From Microcoleus sp. (GTDB taxonomy: Bacteria > Cyanobacteriota > Cyanobacteriia > Cyanobacteriales > Microcoleaceae), in NCBI GenBank assembly GCA_042408215.1, contig JAYFMW010000020.1:160001-224000 (forward strand): a stretch of DNA of 64,000 nt, read 5' to 3'. Position 1 is the stretch's first letter, and each line of letters starts with the position of its first letter. Below the pieces are notes generated by a model. That model worked only from the letters and a program-made list of their open reading frames with translations. It did not search any database and was not told the origin of the DNA. Shown one piece after another: positions 48,399-57,884 of this stretch. A program made the translations under genes and the position numbers.

Positions 48399-49296
48399 TT
48401 AATTTTTCTTAAGTAATTTTTTTACCAATTTAGGAACCTCCGAAGGCCGAGCCGCCACTGGTATCTTGGCCTCTTCAAAGGCAGCCATTTTATTTTCGGC
48501 TGTGACTCCAAACGCTGACTGCGCTGCTGCGCGAGAACTGATCAGGATGCCGGCGTGGCCTAAAGACGGCCCTTTGGGAGCGTAACGACCCGCCAGGTAG
48601 GCAACCACCGGTTTGTCGATCGCCTCAGGCGATGTAAGAAGCAGCAGCTTGTTCGCTCCACCCGCCAACTTCCCCCACCAAAACGATCGCCTCGGTACTG
48701 TCGTCTTCGTCCAAAATTTGCAGCCACTGCATAAAAGAAGAACCCACAATCGCATCGCAGCCAATACAAACCGCCATCGACTGTCCCAACCCCGCATTAG
48801 TCAGTTCCAGAGCAACTTCGTAAGTCAAAGTGCTGCTGCGACTGATCAACCCCACCGGGCCCGGAGTGTAGAATTCCTTGGGGTGAGTTCCCAGCAGCAG
48901 TTTGTCCGGCACAATAATCCCCGGACTGTTTGGGCCGACAACCAAAGTTTCTGTGGCCTCTGCTTTTCTCACCAAGCGCACCATATCCAGAGGAGGCACT
49001 CCCTCCGTCACGATCGCGATTTGCCGAATCCCTGCGGCGATCGCTTCCAGGGCCGCATCCAGCACCGAGTAAGGCTGCACAAAAATTACCGTAGTGTCAA
49101 TGTGACCAACTGCCGCCACTGCTTGTTCCACCAAATCAAAAACCGGAATTCCCTCCAACTCCAGCCCCCCCCGGCCGGGACTCACACCGGCGACTACATT
49201 CGTGCCGTATGCTTTCATCATCAGGGCAGCCCGGGTTGACGCGGGAGATTCTGTAATGCCCTGTACTAGGACTTTGCTCTCAGGAGTTAAATTCAT
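48399..49296 (-). pseudogene. sucD: Succinyl-CoA synthetase alpha subunit with a single +1 frameshift
   Basis: VLVQGIT, GPNSPG, LTYE and LGHAG motifs split over two frames; an extra base near 48627 creates TGA. Confidence 0.88.
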
Positions 49297-49368
49297 CTTT
49301 ATTCCCCCTTGGAGACTCCCGCTATACCTGTACTCAGGTTAGCGGTGAGAGGAAAAGGGGGTCGGGGT

Positions 49369-50646
49369 CTATTCAACATAAGAATAACCATCCTTTCTCT
49401 GAATCGGTTTACAGTTTTTGCGATTAATACCTTGAATTAATCCAGCCCAAGTCGAAATATTGAAACTTCCGGTATTCCTCACTGCTACGCGACCGATGTA
49501 AGTTCCAATCTTTTTACCCTTCGTAACAATCGCTTTAACAAGATCGCCTGTTTGAAAACCCAAGACATTCTTGAATCGAGGAACATAGCGAGATGGGAAG
49601 CCAAATTTATCCGTGCGACACATTTGACGAGTACCGTGTCCCGTCGCCTTAATCAACAACGGCTTGTTTGTTAACACGGACAATTCCTCAACTTGACCAA
49701 CACAAGCTGCATCAAGCCAATGGGTTTTAGGTAGTTTCAATCGAGTCCGGTTGAATTTGGTCAATCCACCTGAACCAGTTGAAACAGGCAACCCCGTTTC
49801 TTTTAAGCGACTAAATAACGTCCATCGAGTCGAATTCACAGCAGCAGCATCCTTTAGGGGATGTTTAGCTTGTGCAAGAATGCACTTCAGAACGTCTGGT
49901 TTCTTGGCTAAGAATTGCTCGACATCCTGAGTACCTTTCTTCAGGTTGCACTTCTCACAAGCAAGGCCAAGGTTAGAAATGCGATCGCTGCCACCTTTGG
50001 CTTTGGGATGAATATGTTCAATTTGCCAAGGTACATTTTCAACACCGCAGTAAGTGCATTTCCTGTCCCATTTGTTCAGTAGATATTCCCGAAGTTCGTA
50101 GCCAACTAATTCCCCTTGCTGATATTCAATGCCTGAAATCTCAGGGTTCTCTAATTGCTGTAAATCAAACCTGACCAGTTCTTGAACAATTGAACCGATG
50201 GGGGCAAACCTAATTAATTTGTTCACCCAAGTCAAAGTTGTTTCGACTCGATGTTGCAAACTAGGGGCTAACCAACCTTTCGAGCGGGTGCGATTCAAAA
50301 ATCTTGCTCTCCGGTAGCGAGTATGGCGATTTCTGCGTGACCGACGTAACTCGCTTCGGGACTCAAGGCTTGCTTTGATGGCTTGACCACGATGGGTTAG
50401 TTCAGCACCCCAGATCACCTTATTACCTTGCACTAATGCGATGCCAGTAGTTTTAGAGCCTGGGTCTAGCTTGAGTTGTATTGGTGCAACAATTACTTCT
50501 GGACATGATTTTTTTAAGATGATTGTAAATGGATACATTCTGAATACAGCAGCATTGACCGAGCCTAGTAATTTCCTTGCTCCCGAAAGGTGACAAGGGC
50601 TTAACGGCTGTTTCTTGGTGTCAATAACTAATGCGTAATTTGACAT
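49369..50646 (-). CDS. iscB: RNA-guided endonuclease IscB
   Basis: PLSP (PLMP-like), RuvC-I LDPGS, RRSRR bridge helix, RuvC-II E in VQELVRFD, HNH CTYC..EH..N..CEKCN, RuvC-III HWLDA. Confidence 0.96.
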   Translation of the reverse strand: MSNYALVIDTKKQPLSPCHLSGARKLLGSVNAAVFRMYPFTIILKKSCPEVIVAPIQLKLDPGSKTTGIALVQGNKVIWGAELTHRGQAIKASLESRSELRRSRRNRHTRYRRARFLNRTRSKGWLAPSLQHRVETTLTWVNKLIRFAPIGSIVQELVRFDLQQLENPEISGIEYQQGELVGYELREYLLNKWDRKCTYCGVENVPWQIEHIHPKAKGGSDRISNLGLACEKCNLKKGTQDVEQFLAKKPDVLKCILAQAKHPLKDAAAVNSTRWTLFSRLKETGLPVSTGSGGLTKFNRTRLKLPKTHWLDAACVGQVEELSVLTNKPLLIKATGHGTRQMCRTDKFGFPSRYVPRFKNVLGFQTGDLVKAIVTKGKKIGTYIGRVAVRNTGSFNISTWAGLIQGINRKNCKPIQRKDGYSYVE

Positions 50647-50900
50647 TTCTGCCTCTCCTATTTCTAGGGTAATGTGAGCTTTGACAATGTTAGAAGTCGG
50701 TACTATCCCAAAAGCACTGGCTTAACCCTTTTAGACCTGTTTAACTTTTGAGTTTTAGAGCTTGGAACTAGCTTCGCATTCCAAGGTAAGAACTTGGACT
50801 CTTGCTTCTAACGTAGTTCTTGCGAACTTAGTCGGGTAAACTTTGGCTTCTTTCAAAGCCCCCGCTAGATCGGTAATCCGATTAGCGGCGGGTTGTTTAC
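50647..50900 (-). ncRNA. omegaRNA (HEARO-type) scaffold of IscB
   Basis: About 250-nt structured leader with GTAAAC..GTTTAC stem, CTACGTT, GAATGC..CTAGTTC, ACATTGTCAAAG motifs directly upstream of iscB. Confidence 0.85.
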
Positions 50901-50921
50901 TGTTTCCTTATAGATAGTCTA

Positions 50922-51012: not shown

Positions 51013-51181
51013 CTAGGGCGTGTTTTCAAACTACTGATTATGAACCGAATCTCTCGAAGATCCCCCTAAATCCCCCTTAAAAAGGGAGTAGGGTGTGAGT
51101 AGGAGTTGACGAAAGAGACTCTTTCTCCCCCCTTGTTAAGGGGGGCCGGGGGGGATCTTAGAGTTTGAAAACACGCCCTAG
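51013..51181. mobile_element. MITE with perfect 20-bp terminal inverted repeats
   Basis: CTAGGGCGTGTTTTCAAACT / AGTTTGAAAACACGCCCTAG; CTAG at both ends. Confidence 0.85.
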
Positions 51182-51205
51182 GGCCTTATAGCATTAGGCA
51201 GTGGA

Positions 51206-52450
51206 CTATTTAGCCAAGGATACAGCTTGCGCCACAGCCTGATCCAAAGTGGCTGCCAGGTGTACGGGCAACTGGCCCAAGCGCTCTTTTACAGAGTCTC
51301 GATCGCACCCAATCAGGCGCAGCACAACCTGAATCTGGCGGTTGGCGCGAGTTTTCCGTTCCAGATAGCCCGCCACCGCAGCGATCATTTCATCGCTCTT
51401 CGAGACACTGCCCAAGATATTCACCAGTAACACCTTGACGTTTTTCTCTCTCCCGACTAACTCCAGACCCAACTGTGCGCGATCGCGCAGGGCATCTGCT
51501 GCCTGATAGCGGTCTAGTGAACCCAGATTCACAAAATTAGCTGGTTTTCCTTTGGCGTGGGCCACAGCATCCAGAGTTGCCATCGTCAGACCCACTCCGT
51601 TGCACAAAATCCCGATATTCCCCTCTAGTTCTACCAAGTTCAGGGATTCGGAATTGGAGATTTGGGATTGAGAGTTGGGTTCAAACTGTGAGTCCGAGTG
51701 TAGCAGGTTCGGGTGGGAATTCTGGCGCGAGGCTGGGGCATAGGGACTTCTCCTTTCCCCTGGCAATCCGCTGCTTTGCCTGTTACCGGAGAGTACAGCC
51801 AAGTCTGGGTGCCGCCCCAAGGCATCGTCGTTGGCACTGACTTTGCCGTCTAAAGCCATTACCTCTCGCTTCGGACTGATGCCGAGAGGATTGATTTCTA
51901 CTAAATCTAAATCCTTTTCGACAAACAGCCGGTACATTTTTTCGACTATGGTACTCACCGACTGAATCAAGTCTCCCTGCAATCCCATTTTCAGCGTCAG
52001 ACGCCTCGCGTAGAAGGGGGAAAAGTCTTGGTCTACGACAACCTGCTGCAACTTGCTGCAACTTGCTGCATTCGCCCCTTCTACATTCATGCCTCCTTGT
52101 TTCGATCCCAAAAGTACGGGGCGTCGCGCCACGGGGTCTAGGAGTACCGCCAAGTACAATTCTTGGTCAGCGTTGTACTTAGCCTCTGCCAGTAAGACTT
52201 GGGGATACTCCGATTCGATCGGCAAATTAAAAATTGTTTGAGCAGCAGCCACTGCATCGATCGTGTTTTCCACAAACTTGATGCCGCCAGCCCTCCCCCG
52301 TCCGCCCGCCCGCACTTGCGACTTCAGTACAACTGGATAGGGTATTTTCAGCCCTTTGAGGTCTGCGGGATTGTCAATCCGCTGCGACGGCAAAACTGGG
52401 ATTGCCATCTGGCGAAATAAAGCTTTAGCTTGGTACTCTAACAAATCCAT
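51206..52450 (-). CDS. sucC: Succinyl-CoA synthetase beta subunit
   Basis: MDLLEYQAK, KSQV.AGGRG.AGG, EINPL, NG.GL.MATLD, PANF. Confidence 0.93.
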   Translation of the reverse strand: MDLLEYQAKALFRQMAIPVLPSQRIDNPADLKGLKIPYPVVLKSQVRAGGRGRAGGIKFVENTIDAVAAAQTIFNLPIESEYPQVLLAEAKYNADQELYLAVLLDPVARRPVLLGSKQGGMNVEGANAASCSKLQQVVVDQDFSPFYARRLTLKMGLQGDLIQSVSTIVEKMYRLFVEKDLDLVEINPLGISPKREVMALDGKVSANDDALGRHPDLAVLSGNRQSSGLPGERRSPYAPASRQNSHPNLLHSDSQFEPNSQSQISNSESLNLVELEGNIGILCNGVGLTMATLDAVAHAKGKPANFVNLGSLDRYQAADALRDRAQLGLELVGREKNVKVLLVNILGSVSKSDEMIAAVAGYLERKTRANRQIQVVLRLIGCDRDSVKERLGQLPVHLAATLDQAVAQAVSLAK

Positions 52451-52728
52451 TATCAGTAACGGGTAACGGGTATTTAGCAACAAGCAATTAGTAATATCAA
52501 GTCCGATTAATTGCTTATAAATCCTGTAGGGGCCAAGGGCATCGGGTCTGGTCGAACAAAAGTATTATAACTATTCAACCGGACCTGATATAAGTAGCCA
52601 TTAGTAATTGGTAATTTTTCAAGTTAAAGGTTAAAAATCCTGGATTTTAGCTTTGAATTTTCGACTTTTCTATTACCGATTACTGATTAGCGATTGGACG
52701 ATCGCCCGACTTCACTATTACCGATCAG

Positions 52729-55373: not shown

Positions 55374-56770
55374 GTGACATCTCCTACACCAACCTGAATA
55401 CAGGTACTTGTGCTGAGCGTAGCCGAAGTATGGTGTAGGCTTCCAAGACAATCCGGCTATCGCTTAGGAGACTCTTGGCTTTAAGAACGGAATGCCCTAC
55501 CGCTCTATTTTTGATATTAATAGCTGCATTATGGTCACGATCGAGACTACACCCACAATGAGGGCAGTCAGGCCAACGAATATGCAGTTTTTTAGGTACT
55601 TTCTCATCGCAATTGGAACAATCTTGTGAGGTGTTATGGGCCCTTACTGGTATCACTAACTTTCCCAGCATTTACGGCTTTGTTTGCTAATATTGACAGA
55701 AAGTTTGACCACCCAGCATCCAGCACAGATTTAGCCAATCTTGTACGAGCCAGACCTTTGATGTTTAAATCTTCATGAGCAACTACATCGTATTTTGATA
55801 GCAAATAATTAGCTGTATTGAAATGGAAATCTTTACGTTGAGCGTCAACTTTCTGATGTTGACACCCTAGTTGTTTAACTGCTTTATGTCTGCGGTTACT
55901 CCCTTTTTTACGCCGTGATACCCGTTTTTGGATTACCTTCAAACGTTTTTGCGCTTGACGATAATGTTGAGGAATAGCTACAGTTTCTCCCTCAGCAGTT
56001 GTTAAGAATTCATTCAATCCCAGGTCAATCCCAGTAATTGCATCTGGATGAAAATCCGGCTTAATTTCGGGAACAGTCTGGTCTTCTAGTGAAACGGTAA
56101 TGTAATATCCATCAGCTTTTTTAGTAACAGAAGCTGTTTTAATCTTGAATCCATCCGGTATTTGACGATGTAGAATTACTTTAACTTTTCCCAACATCGG
56201 CAAGTTAACCAAGTTGCCCTGTAAACAAGCATCTTTCATTTGGGGATAGGTAAAGGTGCGATAACGACTACGAGGTTTAAATCGTGGTCTACCGCTGCGT
56301 TTACCATTGCTATCACCTTTGAGAAATCGGTCAAATGTTACCTTAACTCGCTTGACTACATCTTGGAGAACTTGAGAGTAAATCTCGCTATACCAAGGAC
56401 GAGTTTTTTTCAGTTGAGGTCAGGTCTTTTTCTGAGAAAAATAGTCGGGATGAACCCGTAATTCAGGCAAGTGACAAATAAGAGGACAAGCATTGATAGC
56501 ACAGCGATTTTGTTCATACCAGTTAAATCTATCCGCCAACAAATAGTTATACTGGGCGCACAGCATGGATAACCATCTGTCAAGCTCAGTAACTTGCTGC
56601 TTTGTGGGACGTAGTTTATACTGGTAGGCTGTTCTCACTTACTTGCTGTTTGGTCTTACTATTTGAGTATACAAAGATTTGGTCAACTTCGTACCTAGGT
56701 TGGCCGGTCTATCCATCCCAACACCAAGCGGATTACCGCTGGCTGTGGGGATTCCGACGCAGAAAGCTAA
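55374..56770 (-). mobile_element. IS200/IS605-family (IS1341-like) TnpB-only element
   Basis: Right end GAGATGTCAC with hairpin; hairpin-bearing left end near 56700-56770 (exact boundary uncertain). Confidence 0.8.
55384..56638 (-). pseudogene. tnpB: TnpB RNA-guided endonuclease, disrupted
   Basis: [32 protein letters not shown]; in-frame TGA at 56420-56422 and a frameshift near 55665. Confidence 0.92.
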
Positions 56771-57884
56771 ATTTATTAAAATAGACAGGTGCAAATTGAG
56801 GAGTGAAAGCGTACCGAAATTGACTAAATATTTACTGATCGGTTCCACAAAAGCTTACAGCGGCAAGTCCGCGATCGCCCTGGGGATGGCACTCGGACTC
56901 CGATCAAAAGGAGTGGCCATCGCCTACGGCAAACCTCTGGGAACTTGTTTTAGCTCCGATGTAGCAGGTGGCGAGGAGGAGGACGTGCGGTTCGCGGTAG
57001 AGACGCTGAAGCTCAAAGATAGCCAGATACCGTCAACCCTGTTGTCTTTGGACGCAGAGACGGTTCACAAGCGGCTGCTAGGAGAAGACAAGACAGATTA
57101 CCGCAGGGATCTAGCGGCATATTTGGAAGAGCCCTGCGGAGACTTAGTGTTGTTAGAAGGCCCCGCTAATTTGGAGGAAGGCAGTCTGTTTGACTTGTCT
57201 TTACCTCAAGTAGCCGAGGCAGTTGATGCTTCTGTGCTGCTGGTGACTCGCCCGATGGACCTTTATATAGACGATTTGCTGTCGGCTAAGCAGCGTTTGG
57301 GTTCCCGTTTGCTGGGTGTCGTCCTCAACGACGTTCCCTCGGACAAACTCGAATCTATAACCACCACTGTGCGACCTTTTCTGGAAGCAAAAGGGATTCC
57401 AGTCCTGGGAATGCTGCCCAGAAGCGCTTTGCTACGCAGTGTCAGCGTCAAAGAACTGGTGTACCAATTGAAAGCTGAGGTGCTCTGTCGCCCTGACCGT
57501 TTGGGATTGTTTGTGGAAACCTTGACAATTGGCGCGATGAATGTTAGTTCGGCTCTGAAGTATTTCCGCAAAGCCAGAAATATGGCAGTGGTGACAGGGG
57601 GCGATCGCACGGACATTCAGCTAGCGGCTCTGGAAAGCTCGACTCAGTGCTTAATTCTGACGGGACACTTGCCTCCGTCTCCCCTGGTGATCGGCAGGGC
57701 AGAAGAAGTGGAAATTCCAGTTTTGTCGGTTGATTTGGATACCTTAACCACGGTGGAAATTATCGACAGCACCTTTGGCAGCGTGCGCCTGCACGAGACG
57801 ATTAAGGTGGAATGCGTGACTCAGCTAATGGCAGAGCATTTTGACATGGATGGAATGCTCGCCTCCTTGGGTATGGGCGATTGA
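56679..57884 (+). CDS. Phosphotransacetylase-family (AAA_26 plus DRTGG) protein; true start probably near 56820
   Basis: YSGKS, YGKPLG, LLEG, IGAM, VVTGGDRTDIQ. Confidence 0.88.
   Translation: MVNFVPRLAGLSIPTPSGLPLAVGIPTQKAKFIKIDRCKLRSESVPKLTKYLLIGSTKAYSGKSAIALGMALGLRSKGVAIAYGKPLGTCFSSDVAGGEEEDVRFAVETLKLKDSQIPSTLLSLDAETVHKRLLGEDKTDYRRDLAAYLEEPCGDLVLLEGPANLEEGSLFDLSLPQVAEAVDASVLLVTRPMDLYIDDLLSAKQRLGSRLLGVVLNDVPSDKLESITTTVRPFLEAKGIPVLGMLPRSALLRSVSVKELVYQLKAEVLCRPDRLGLFVETLTIGAMNVSSALKYFRKARNMAVVTGGDRTDIQLAALESSTQCLILTGHLPPSPLVIGRAEEVEIPVLSVDLDTLTTVEIIDSTFGSVRLHETIKVECVTQLMAEHFDMDGMLASLGMGD

Follow-up and report, generated by a model that had tools for sequence, protein, structure and literature searches.

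The window analysed here is a 64,000-nucleotide stretch of the forward strand of a Microcoleus contig (JAYFMW010000020.1, positions 160,001 to 224,000). We investigated a 1,604-bp mobile element on its minus strand (49297-50900), placed between TAAGGAAACA and the ATG of sucD, which carries an iscB nuclease gene and the scaffold of an omegaRNA. The locus contains the following features.

48399 to 49296, minus strand: sucD (succinate-CoA ligase alpha subunit), matching PRK05678 over model positions 6-222 and 224-290 in two frames.
49293 to 49296, minus strand: ATGA, the insertion target, presumed target-adjacent motif (TAM), and start codon of sucD plus one base; it adjoins 52 of 55 family ends and agrees with the published N/ATGA (the slash marks a junction here and below).
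49297 to 49368, plus strand: transposase left end, a hairpin in DNA and RNA folds, with the putative guide GAGA at 49312-49315.
49369 to 50646, minus strand: iscB, an open frame of 425 aa, IscB2 type, with RuvC and HNH (NF040563, RRXRR and HNH matches).
50647 to 50668, minus strand: iscB leader with its own purine-rich ribosome-binding site (RBS), AGGAGAGG, read from the sequence.
50669 to 50900, minus strand: HEARO/omegaRNA scaffold (Rfam RF02033), whose 5' end is the element's transposase right end.
50901 to 50920, minus strand: host flank, that is, the sucD leader with its native RBS (AAGGA) and the predicted omegaRNA guide, directly 5' of the HEARO model start.
51206 to 52483, minus strand: sucC (beta subunit), upstream of sucD in the same direction (PRK00696 match).

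Along the minus strand, AGACTATCTATAAGGAAACA (50920-50901) is followed by GTAAAC at the start of the element, by the HEARO scaffold, iscB and a 72-nt hairpin end closing with GGGGGAATAAAG, and then by ATGAAT of sucD. This order had been read correctly in a preliminary description of the DNA, which also placed the insertion between RBS and start codon and left one junction G ambiguous. The start codon of sucD, the ATG at 49296, is conserved: in each of the 76 other same-genus loci the gene likewise begins with ATGAAT. The leaders of relatives' empty alleles end in the similar GGAAAAA or GGAAACA. Filled and empty alleles of a sister lineage with the same type of left end (A-type) revealed a precise insertion at the same codon. 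In three genomes (G003, G067 and G072) the filled allele reads ...gggaaaaa/GTCAAT...AAAG/ATGAAT, whereas the empty allele reads ...gggaaaaa/ATGAAT. Both junction Gs therefore belong to the element, and the fixed 4-bp target is not duplicated.

A covariance search, proposed in the preliminary description, matched RF02033 from 50900 to 50669 with 146.1 bits (cut-off 83; E 1.5e-30) over the full model (1-211). Model position 1 coincides with the first base of the element, and the omegaRNA lies directly upstream of iscB. We base the identification of the omegaRNA on this match and not on its fold, the minimum free energy z-score of the region being weak (-1.92). Its closing (first) stem, GUAAAC with GUUUAC, differs from the consensus GUCAAC with GUUGAC on both sides, a change seen in 1 of 69 HEARO copies examined in this genome. 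The RF02033 HEARO RNA was reportedly described by Weinberg et al. in 2009.

The iscB product matched NF040563 guided_IscB with 455.6 bits (cut-off 175), PF14239 (RRXRR), PF01844 (HNH) and solved IscB chains (best E 1e-38). IscB proteins are ancestral to Cas9; as a Cas9 or Cas9d, this 425-aa protein fell below the family cut-off (NF049971 Cas9d, 51.3 bits against 375). Residues D61, E156, H309 and D312 of RuvC and H211 of HNH, presumed catalytic from alignment, are present; 28-29 of 29 homologous copies, drawn from this genome and from other loci, share them. No tnpA was found within the element: iscB is the sole long same-strand open reading frame (ORF) in 49297-50900, and PF01797 had no match at the locus. 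The left end forms a subterminal hairpin with a guide tetranucleotide of the form GA[G/T]A; on the plus strand its GAGA occupies +16 to +19, counted from the cleavage point. The last bases of the same end, read on the minus strand, form a Shine-Dalgarno (SD)-like AAGGGGGA ahead of sucD. At the right end, an AAAG by the TTAC end had seemed to be a compensatory guide for the TnpA transposase; it was rejected, as sister copies lack a matching CAAG. The element is a non-autonomous member of the IS200/IS605 superfamily of the ISC2 type (omegaRNA plus iscB).

Next, we compared the ends of the family and their targets. This genome yielded 70 HEARO matches, 64 of them above cut-off and most without iscB. 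Ends were located by anchors that do not contain ATG, though the anchors were designed from family copies already seen, and fell into type A (9 copies), type B (31) and type C (15 with GGGGTTTC and 16 with GGGGTTTT). ATGA came next in 9/9 A ends, 30/31 B ends and 13/15 C ends with GGGGTTTC, a total of 52/55; the C ends with GGGGTTTT were followed by ATAA in 14/16 cases and never by ATGA. The base that distinguishes the two C types is the first of four at the hairpin foot on the transposase strand. In a separate search of C-type copies, the guide GAAA went with TCAT in 16/16 and AAAA with TTAT in 22/27, never with TCAT. Similarly, TCAT stood at the end distance in 68 of 70 C-type GAAA ends from other genomes, and all 14 A-type copies have GA[G/T]A at +16 to +19. 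Because guide and target co-vary in these sequences, the insertion motif appears to be set by the transposase guide in the element end, and not only by the TAM of IscB.

The preliminary description had proposed that an ATGA TAM biases such elements toward start codons. The bias is real in the tallies given below. As to its cause, the TAM is not supported as proposed: the motif tracks the transposase guide, and a TnpB element bearing such an end sits on the same sucD codon in genome G016. By analogy with GstIscB, the TAM presumably matches the transposase-guide motif. A further search found 20 tnpA matches in this genome, 12 of them near-full-length; since three lie within 2 kb of an A-type hairpin core, a TnpA acting in trans is our inference for the source of mobility. 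Gene content marks the host as a cyanobacterium, and among named records with the same end motif, most are from Microcoleus and its relatives.

We then examined the sucD start codon across the genus. The gene was found in 77 of 79 same-genus genomes, and the upstream region was read in all 77 (the window plus 76 loci). No element end adjoins the ATG in 67 of them, where the sequence is typically ...gggaaaaa/ATGAAT. In the other ten, an element end sits on the sucD ATG, and these ends come from at least four lineages.

Lineage 1: this element and that of G008, which are 99% identical.
Lineage 2: A-type elements in G003, G067, G072 and G085 (four full copies, 72% identical to this element) and in G015 (the 3' part of a copy, on a short contig).
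Lineage 3: the TnpB element of G016, in reverse orientation.
Lineage 4: B-type ends in G044 (where the contig ends) and G089 (a 32-nt stub).

Only G008, the other carrier of this element, has the flank found in the window. In G085 (locus L096) the bases between an upstream ATGAA and the sucD ATG, about 40 nt with the native RBS included, are gone; this arrangement may reflect TnpA-mediated adjacent deletion or recombination between two copies. An intergenic ATGA is present in 31 of the 67 short sucC-sucD spacers. The whole 32-nt spacer of G089 (L114) is mostly a worn B-type end, so that its sucD leader is now transposon-derived. In G048 (L081) a 1.3-kb insertion without iscB lies upstream of the leader, off the ATG.

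To place the sucD insertion in context, all ATGA ends of this genome were tallied, as the preliminary description had recommended, against genes from a home-made caller (6,402 genes, 76% coding). Of 52 ends, 35 open a called gene of 60 aa or more and the other 17 are intergenic. No end was classed as lying within a gene, where 66% of all ATGA sites are found. Two of the 17 intergenic ends adjoin petL and petM, which brings the number on starts to 37/52 and leaves 15/52 at non-start sites. By comparison, 5.1% of the 49,960 ATGA sites are starts; outside called genes the share is 15.1%. The excess was also seen under tighter nulls, which were chosen after the data had been seen: 35/47 against 28.8% when the next gene is on the same strand (p 1e-10), and 35/43 against 48% within 200 nt of a same-strand gene (p 7e-6). 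Among 40 downstream ORFs (the 35 plus five short ones) searched against Pfam and NCBIfam, 34 matched a family and six did not; in 24 of the 34 the match starts no later than residue 14 of the protein and model position 10. In the rebuilt empty sites the upstream frame is short or non-coding, with one start-class site having an in-frame ATG 15 codons upstream.

Other genomes gave a similar picture. A-type ends in other records were followed by ATGA in 22/25 cases, and at 11 of the 16 distinct sites a coding ORF begins; five of these records are the sucD site again and three another shared site, and L126, L128 and L137, non-cyanobacterial or unassigned records without ATGA, were dropped as chance matches. 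For C-type ends, 42 of 57 distinct sites open a coding ORF (from the 68/70 with the target, duplicates removed), by a criterion that does not exclude internal methionines and in a sample of 70 out of 169 genus matches (the 30 loci retrieved by the search and 40 selected from five genomes). TnpB ends lie on starts in 2/3 cases elsewhere and in 2/3 in this genome; one of those elsewhere resembles an internal Met. The starts of a DUF1816 gene, a CPP1-like gene and a GH57 gene carry a B-type end here (G000 C5:370163, C5:596343 and C20:689447) and a C-type element elsewhere (L221, L229 and L230), which suggests that the three starts are hot spots (rough Poisson p 0.006). The scaffolds are only 60-67% identical for two of these, and the third has no scaffold here.

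These observations fit an account in which a TnpA encoded elsewhere would have inserted the element at TCAT on the plus strand (ATGA on the minus strand) without target duplication, the motif being chosen by the 4-base guide at the foot of the left-end hairpin. As ATGA opens many genes, such insertions would frequently separate an RBS from its start codon. An insertion there would spare the coding sequence and lie within a host transcript, which an IscB element would need for its guide. Copies inside genes would be purged, and those at start codons would persist more often than other non-genic copies. The omegaRNA would take the sucD leader (50901-50920) as its guide, and an empty allele, where guide match and ATGA come together, would be cut by any active IscB, whether encoded by this element or by a sister, and the element thereby restored. 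The preliminary description had likewise proposed a flank-derived guide directed at the rebuilt empty sucD site, and this fits the IscB geometry reported by Meers et al. (10.1101/2023.03.14.532601). Neither a sigma-70-like promoter (0 against 2.7 in shuffles) nor a minus-strand terminator-like site was found in 49200-50920. As there is no internal promoter-like site, transcription probably enters the element from the direction of sucC, with which it is likely to be co-transcribed. Part of this stretch is present in 19 of 23 sequencing runs listed; six RNA runs contain part of it, all in the form of assembled contigs, from which RNA ends cannot be read. Between sucC and the element, a palindromic insert of about 190 bp (window 51030-51200; GGGCGTGTTTTCAAAC ... 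GTTTGAAAACACGCCC) that does not occur in G008 resembles a miniature inverted-repeat element. We regard the account as a whole, from guide-set insertion through landing on start codons and survival to homing, as probably correct.

The condition of this copy was also examined. The preliminary description had called it intact, a term that fits only its reading frame and catalytic residues; P20L and L207W, by contrast, fall at nearly invariant columns. Together with A198T they are private to this copy; of 28 others, 28 (P20L), 26 (A198T) and 27 (L207W) keep the conserved residue at the column concerned. Relative to the G008 copy, iscB has 15 non-synonymous and 6 synonymous codon changes (proportions of non-synonymous and synonymous differences, pN 0.015 and pS 0.020), against 3 and 12 for sucD codons 1-223 plus the sucC tail (Fisher p 0.006). 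Across the 326 non-coding nt of omegaRNA and end the two copies are identical; the ORF has 24 differences in 1,278 nt (Fisher p 0.008), 6 of them clustered in one patch. Judged from these substitutions, iscB drifts near-neutrally, with signs of relaxed selection, and its activity is uncertain. In sucD, a one-base insertion near 48624-48626, missed in the preliminary description, occurs in this assembly only and leaves 223 aa, compared with 297-302 aa in 22 same-genus loci. The extra base was seen in 1/19 matched loci (23 examined), and around it the sequence looks as if two alleles known from relatives had been merged. This pattern suggests that an assembly error is at least as likely as a real frameshift.

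Several results weigh against the account given above. Among the 77 genomes no empty allele has the exact flank of the window, so that the check for an empty allele succeeded for the precise junction in the sister A lineage and failed for this flank. The rebuilt self-target was absent elsewhere in the genome, in searches for exact matches down to 10 nt plus ATGA and for 16 nt with up to two mismatches. The start-codon excess shrinks with the tightest null, sites within 100 nt of a same-strand gene (35/40 against 64%, p 8e-4), and the home-made gene caller may over-count intergenic sites and thereby affect the null. TnpB ends are too few to split promoter capture from survival (3 distinct sites in 70 loci; Fisher p 1.0 against IscB/HEARO ends). 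In G085 the element has its other junction some 40 nt upstream of the sucD ATG, at an intergenic ATGAA, indicating that the motif alone suffices. Finally, the substitutions in iscB suggest that this copy may be decaying, in which case homing may be dead or supplied in trans.

The best reading of the start-codon excess is motif plus survival, probably with a further filter imposed by the element's need for a host transcript. Alternatively, the transposase, or retention through the nuclease, could actively prefer initiation sites or hot-spot genes. Start codons would then be an evolved niche, to which a one-base guide setting (GAAA, not AAAA) sends the elements, where certain genes are hit recurrently, and where ends and stubs rewrite initiation regions and steer expression. 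The excess does persist under the tightest null, the sucD codon was struck by at least four lineages in 10/77 genomes, and the three shared starts carry different end types in different genomes. However, present-day positions cannot separate targeting from survival, an element already on a start could be displaced by another, and the genomes, being related, do not count as independent. Non-start ATGA sites are also used (the 15/52 above, and G085), and occupied starts have flanks resembling those of ordinary starts. We therefore consider active targeting rather unlikely, and the evolved niche built on it a tentative proposal. Still less likely is a stronger form of the preliminary proposal, in which the IscB TAM drives placement and the replacement RBS of the element is an adaptation that keeps the host gene translated. 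In its favor, the A end out-pairs the native leader with the 16S tail of this genome (-10.3 against -5.1 kcal/mol), the non-coding sequence has stayed identical to that of G008 while the ORF has diverged, and G085 has lost its native RBS altogether. By contrast, B and C ends have no SD (mean pairing of -1.7 and +2.4 kcal/mol) and occupy starts at least as often (B 21/30 and C 9/13, against A 5/9), indicating that an SD in the end is not needed for residence at a start codon. In addition, the G-run of the A end is predicted to be locked in the basal stem, paired with CCCCUU upstream in both DNA and RNA folds (unpaired probability of 0.15 or less over seven bases). The motif, moreover, tracks the transposase guide and is common to TnpB elements. 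A replacement RBS is thus not supported as a general strategy, while the SD-like end may still matter for sucD translation. Translational coupling, in which a terminating ribosome would unmask the SD, found no support: with the 13 nt that follow the iscB stop blocked, most of the G-run still paired, though with a different partner.

The locus could also be a dead relic, in which the insertion silenced sucD, the frameshift followed, and iscB decays alongside. The one-base insertion in this assembly and the near-neutral divergence of iscB agree with such a course. The frameshift, however, has the doubtful standing described above, and G008 carries the same element with a full 298-aa sucD, as G003, G015 and G016 carry other elements with a full sucD. 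Furthermore, sucD codons 1-223 differ from G008 by 9 synonymous changes and 1 non-synonymous change. We find this explanation improbable.

Kapitonov, Makarova and Koonin 2016 (PMC4810608) describe ISC elements that insert at N/ATGA without duplication and share ends and target with antisense-TnpB elements. Named examples there are ISC1-1_MA of Microcystis, ISC2-1_HM and ISC2-1_MS, with TnpB partners such as IS605B-1_MA. Our element resembles them in being non-autonomous, in its size of about 1.6 kb, its 5'-GT terminus, its subterminal hairpins, its insertion immediately 5' of ATGA and a 3' end common to opposite-strand tnpB elements, a likeness drawn from their published description. It differs from ISC1-1_MA, which lacks HNH, in having an IscB with HNH. 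For ISGst5 and its GstIscB, the available text of Meers et al. (bioRxiv 10.1101/2023.03.14.532601) reports a guide from the outside flank, a TAM TTCAT by the left end and cutting of the donor joint. It also reports a bias toward co-oriented upstream genes, which is an orientation bias and not start-codon overlap; the one mention of a start codon there refers to iscB itself. The omegaRNA likewise lies upstream of iscB at the right end in ISGst5, and TTCAT is ATGAA on the other strand, as here; guide, TAM and cleavage are experimental for ISGst5 and predicted for our element. In related HEARO nucleases the 5' spacer is reprogrammable, according to Aliaga Goltsman et al. 2022 (PMC9755519); our scaffold resembles HEARO in its full-length match to RF02033 above cut-off and departs from the consensus in the GUAAAC and GUUUAC first stem. 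For IS608, He et al. 2011 (PMC3201880) found that the tetranucleotide is chosen by base pairing with four bases located 5' of the foot of the left-end hairpin (GL AAAG, CL TTAC, 19 nt from the hairpin foot). The corresponding pairs here, in a presumed pairing register, are GANA with TCAT or AAAA with TTAT.

Other mobile-element remains were noted. In the window, a tnpB gene lies in pieces at 55384-56848 on the minus strand, with OrfB_IS605 and zinc-ribbon parts in separate ORFs. Elsewhere in the genome, some HEARO mini-elements have an apparent second end nested behind the first (G000 C28:196387, C30:230698, C30:557246 and C4:3521), and distant IscB families of 55-62% identity have GCTAT or GACTT starts (G000 C5:414672, C5:441871, C21:57733, C30:110370, C7:93727 and C14:56949).

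The element itself is ordinary and belongs to the published ISC kind, whose ATGA target has been in print since 2016. Its consequence for start codons may be under-described. The words "start codon", "initiation" and "intergenic" do not occur in the main text of PMC4810608 as available, nor do "ATGA" and "start codon" in that of PMC9755519 or of a 2026 OMEGA review (PMC13565253). A literature search aimed at start-codon landing found no paper that states the pattern, though Weinberg 2009 and Altae-Tran 2021, which lay outside the search, may discuss it. What the analysis adds is the guide switch and the repeated colonization of one codon.

About two thirds of the copies in the genus sit between an RBS and a start codon, beyond what motif and gene avoidance give under the nulls used. 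The genus thus offers a natural experiment, in which one end family has two guide settings and one codon has been colonized at least four times. If start codons were an evolved niche, the elements would gain a host transcript for their guide RNA while sparing coding sequence. Dozens of core genes would be affected (among them those for EF-G, chlB, petL, petM, hisG and signal peptidase I), and starts such as that of sucD would be hit recurrently by unrelated IscB and TnpB lineages. It becomes possible to test whether transposons have target motifs adjusted to sites that are both safe and transcribed, and how translation of a host gene continues downstream of an insert of 0.35-1.6 kb.

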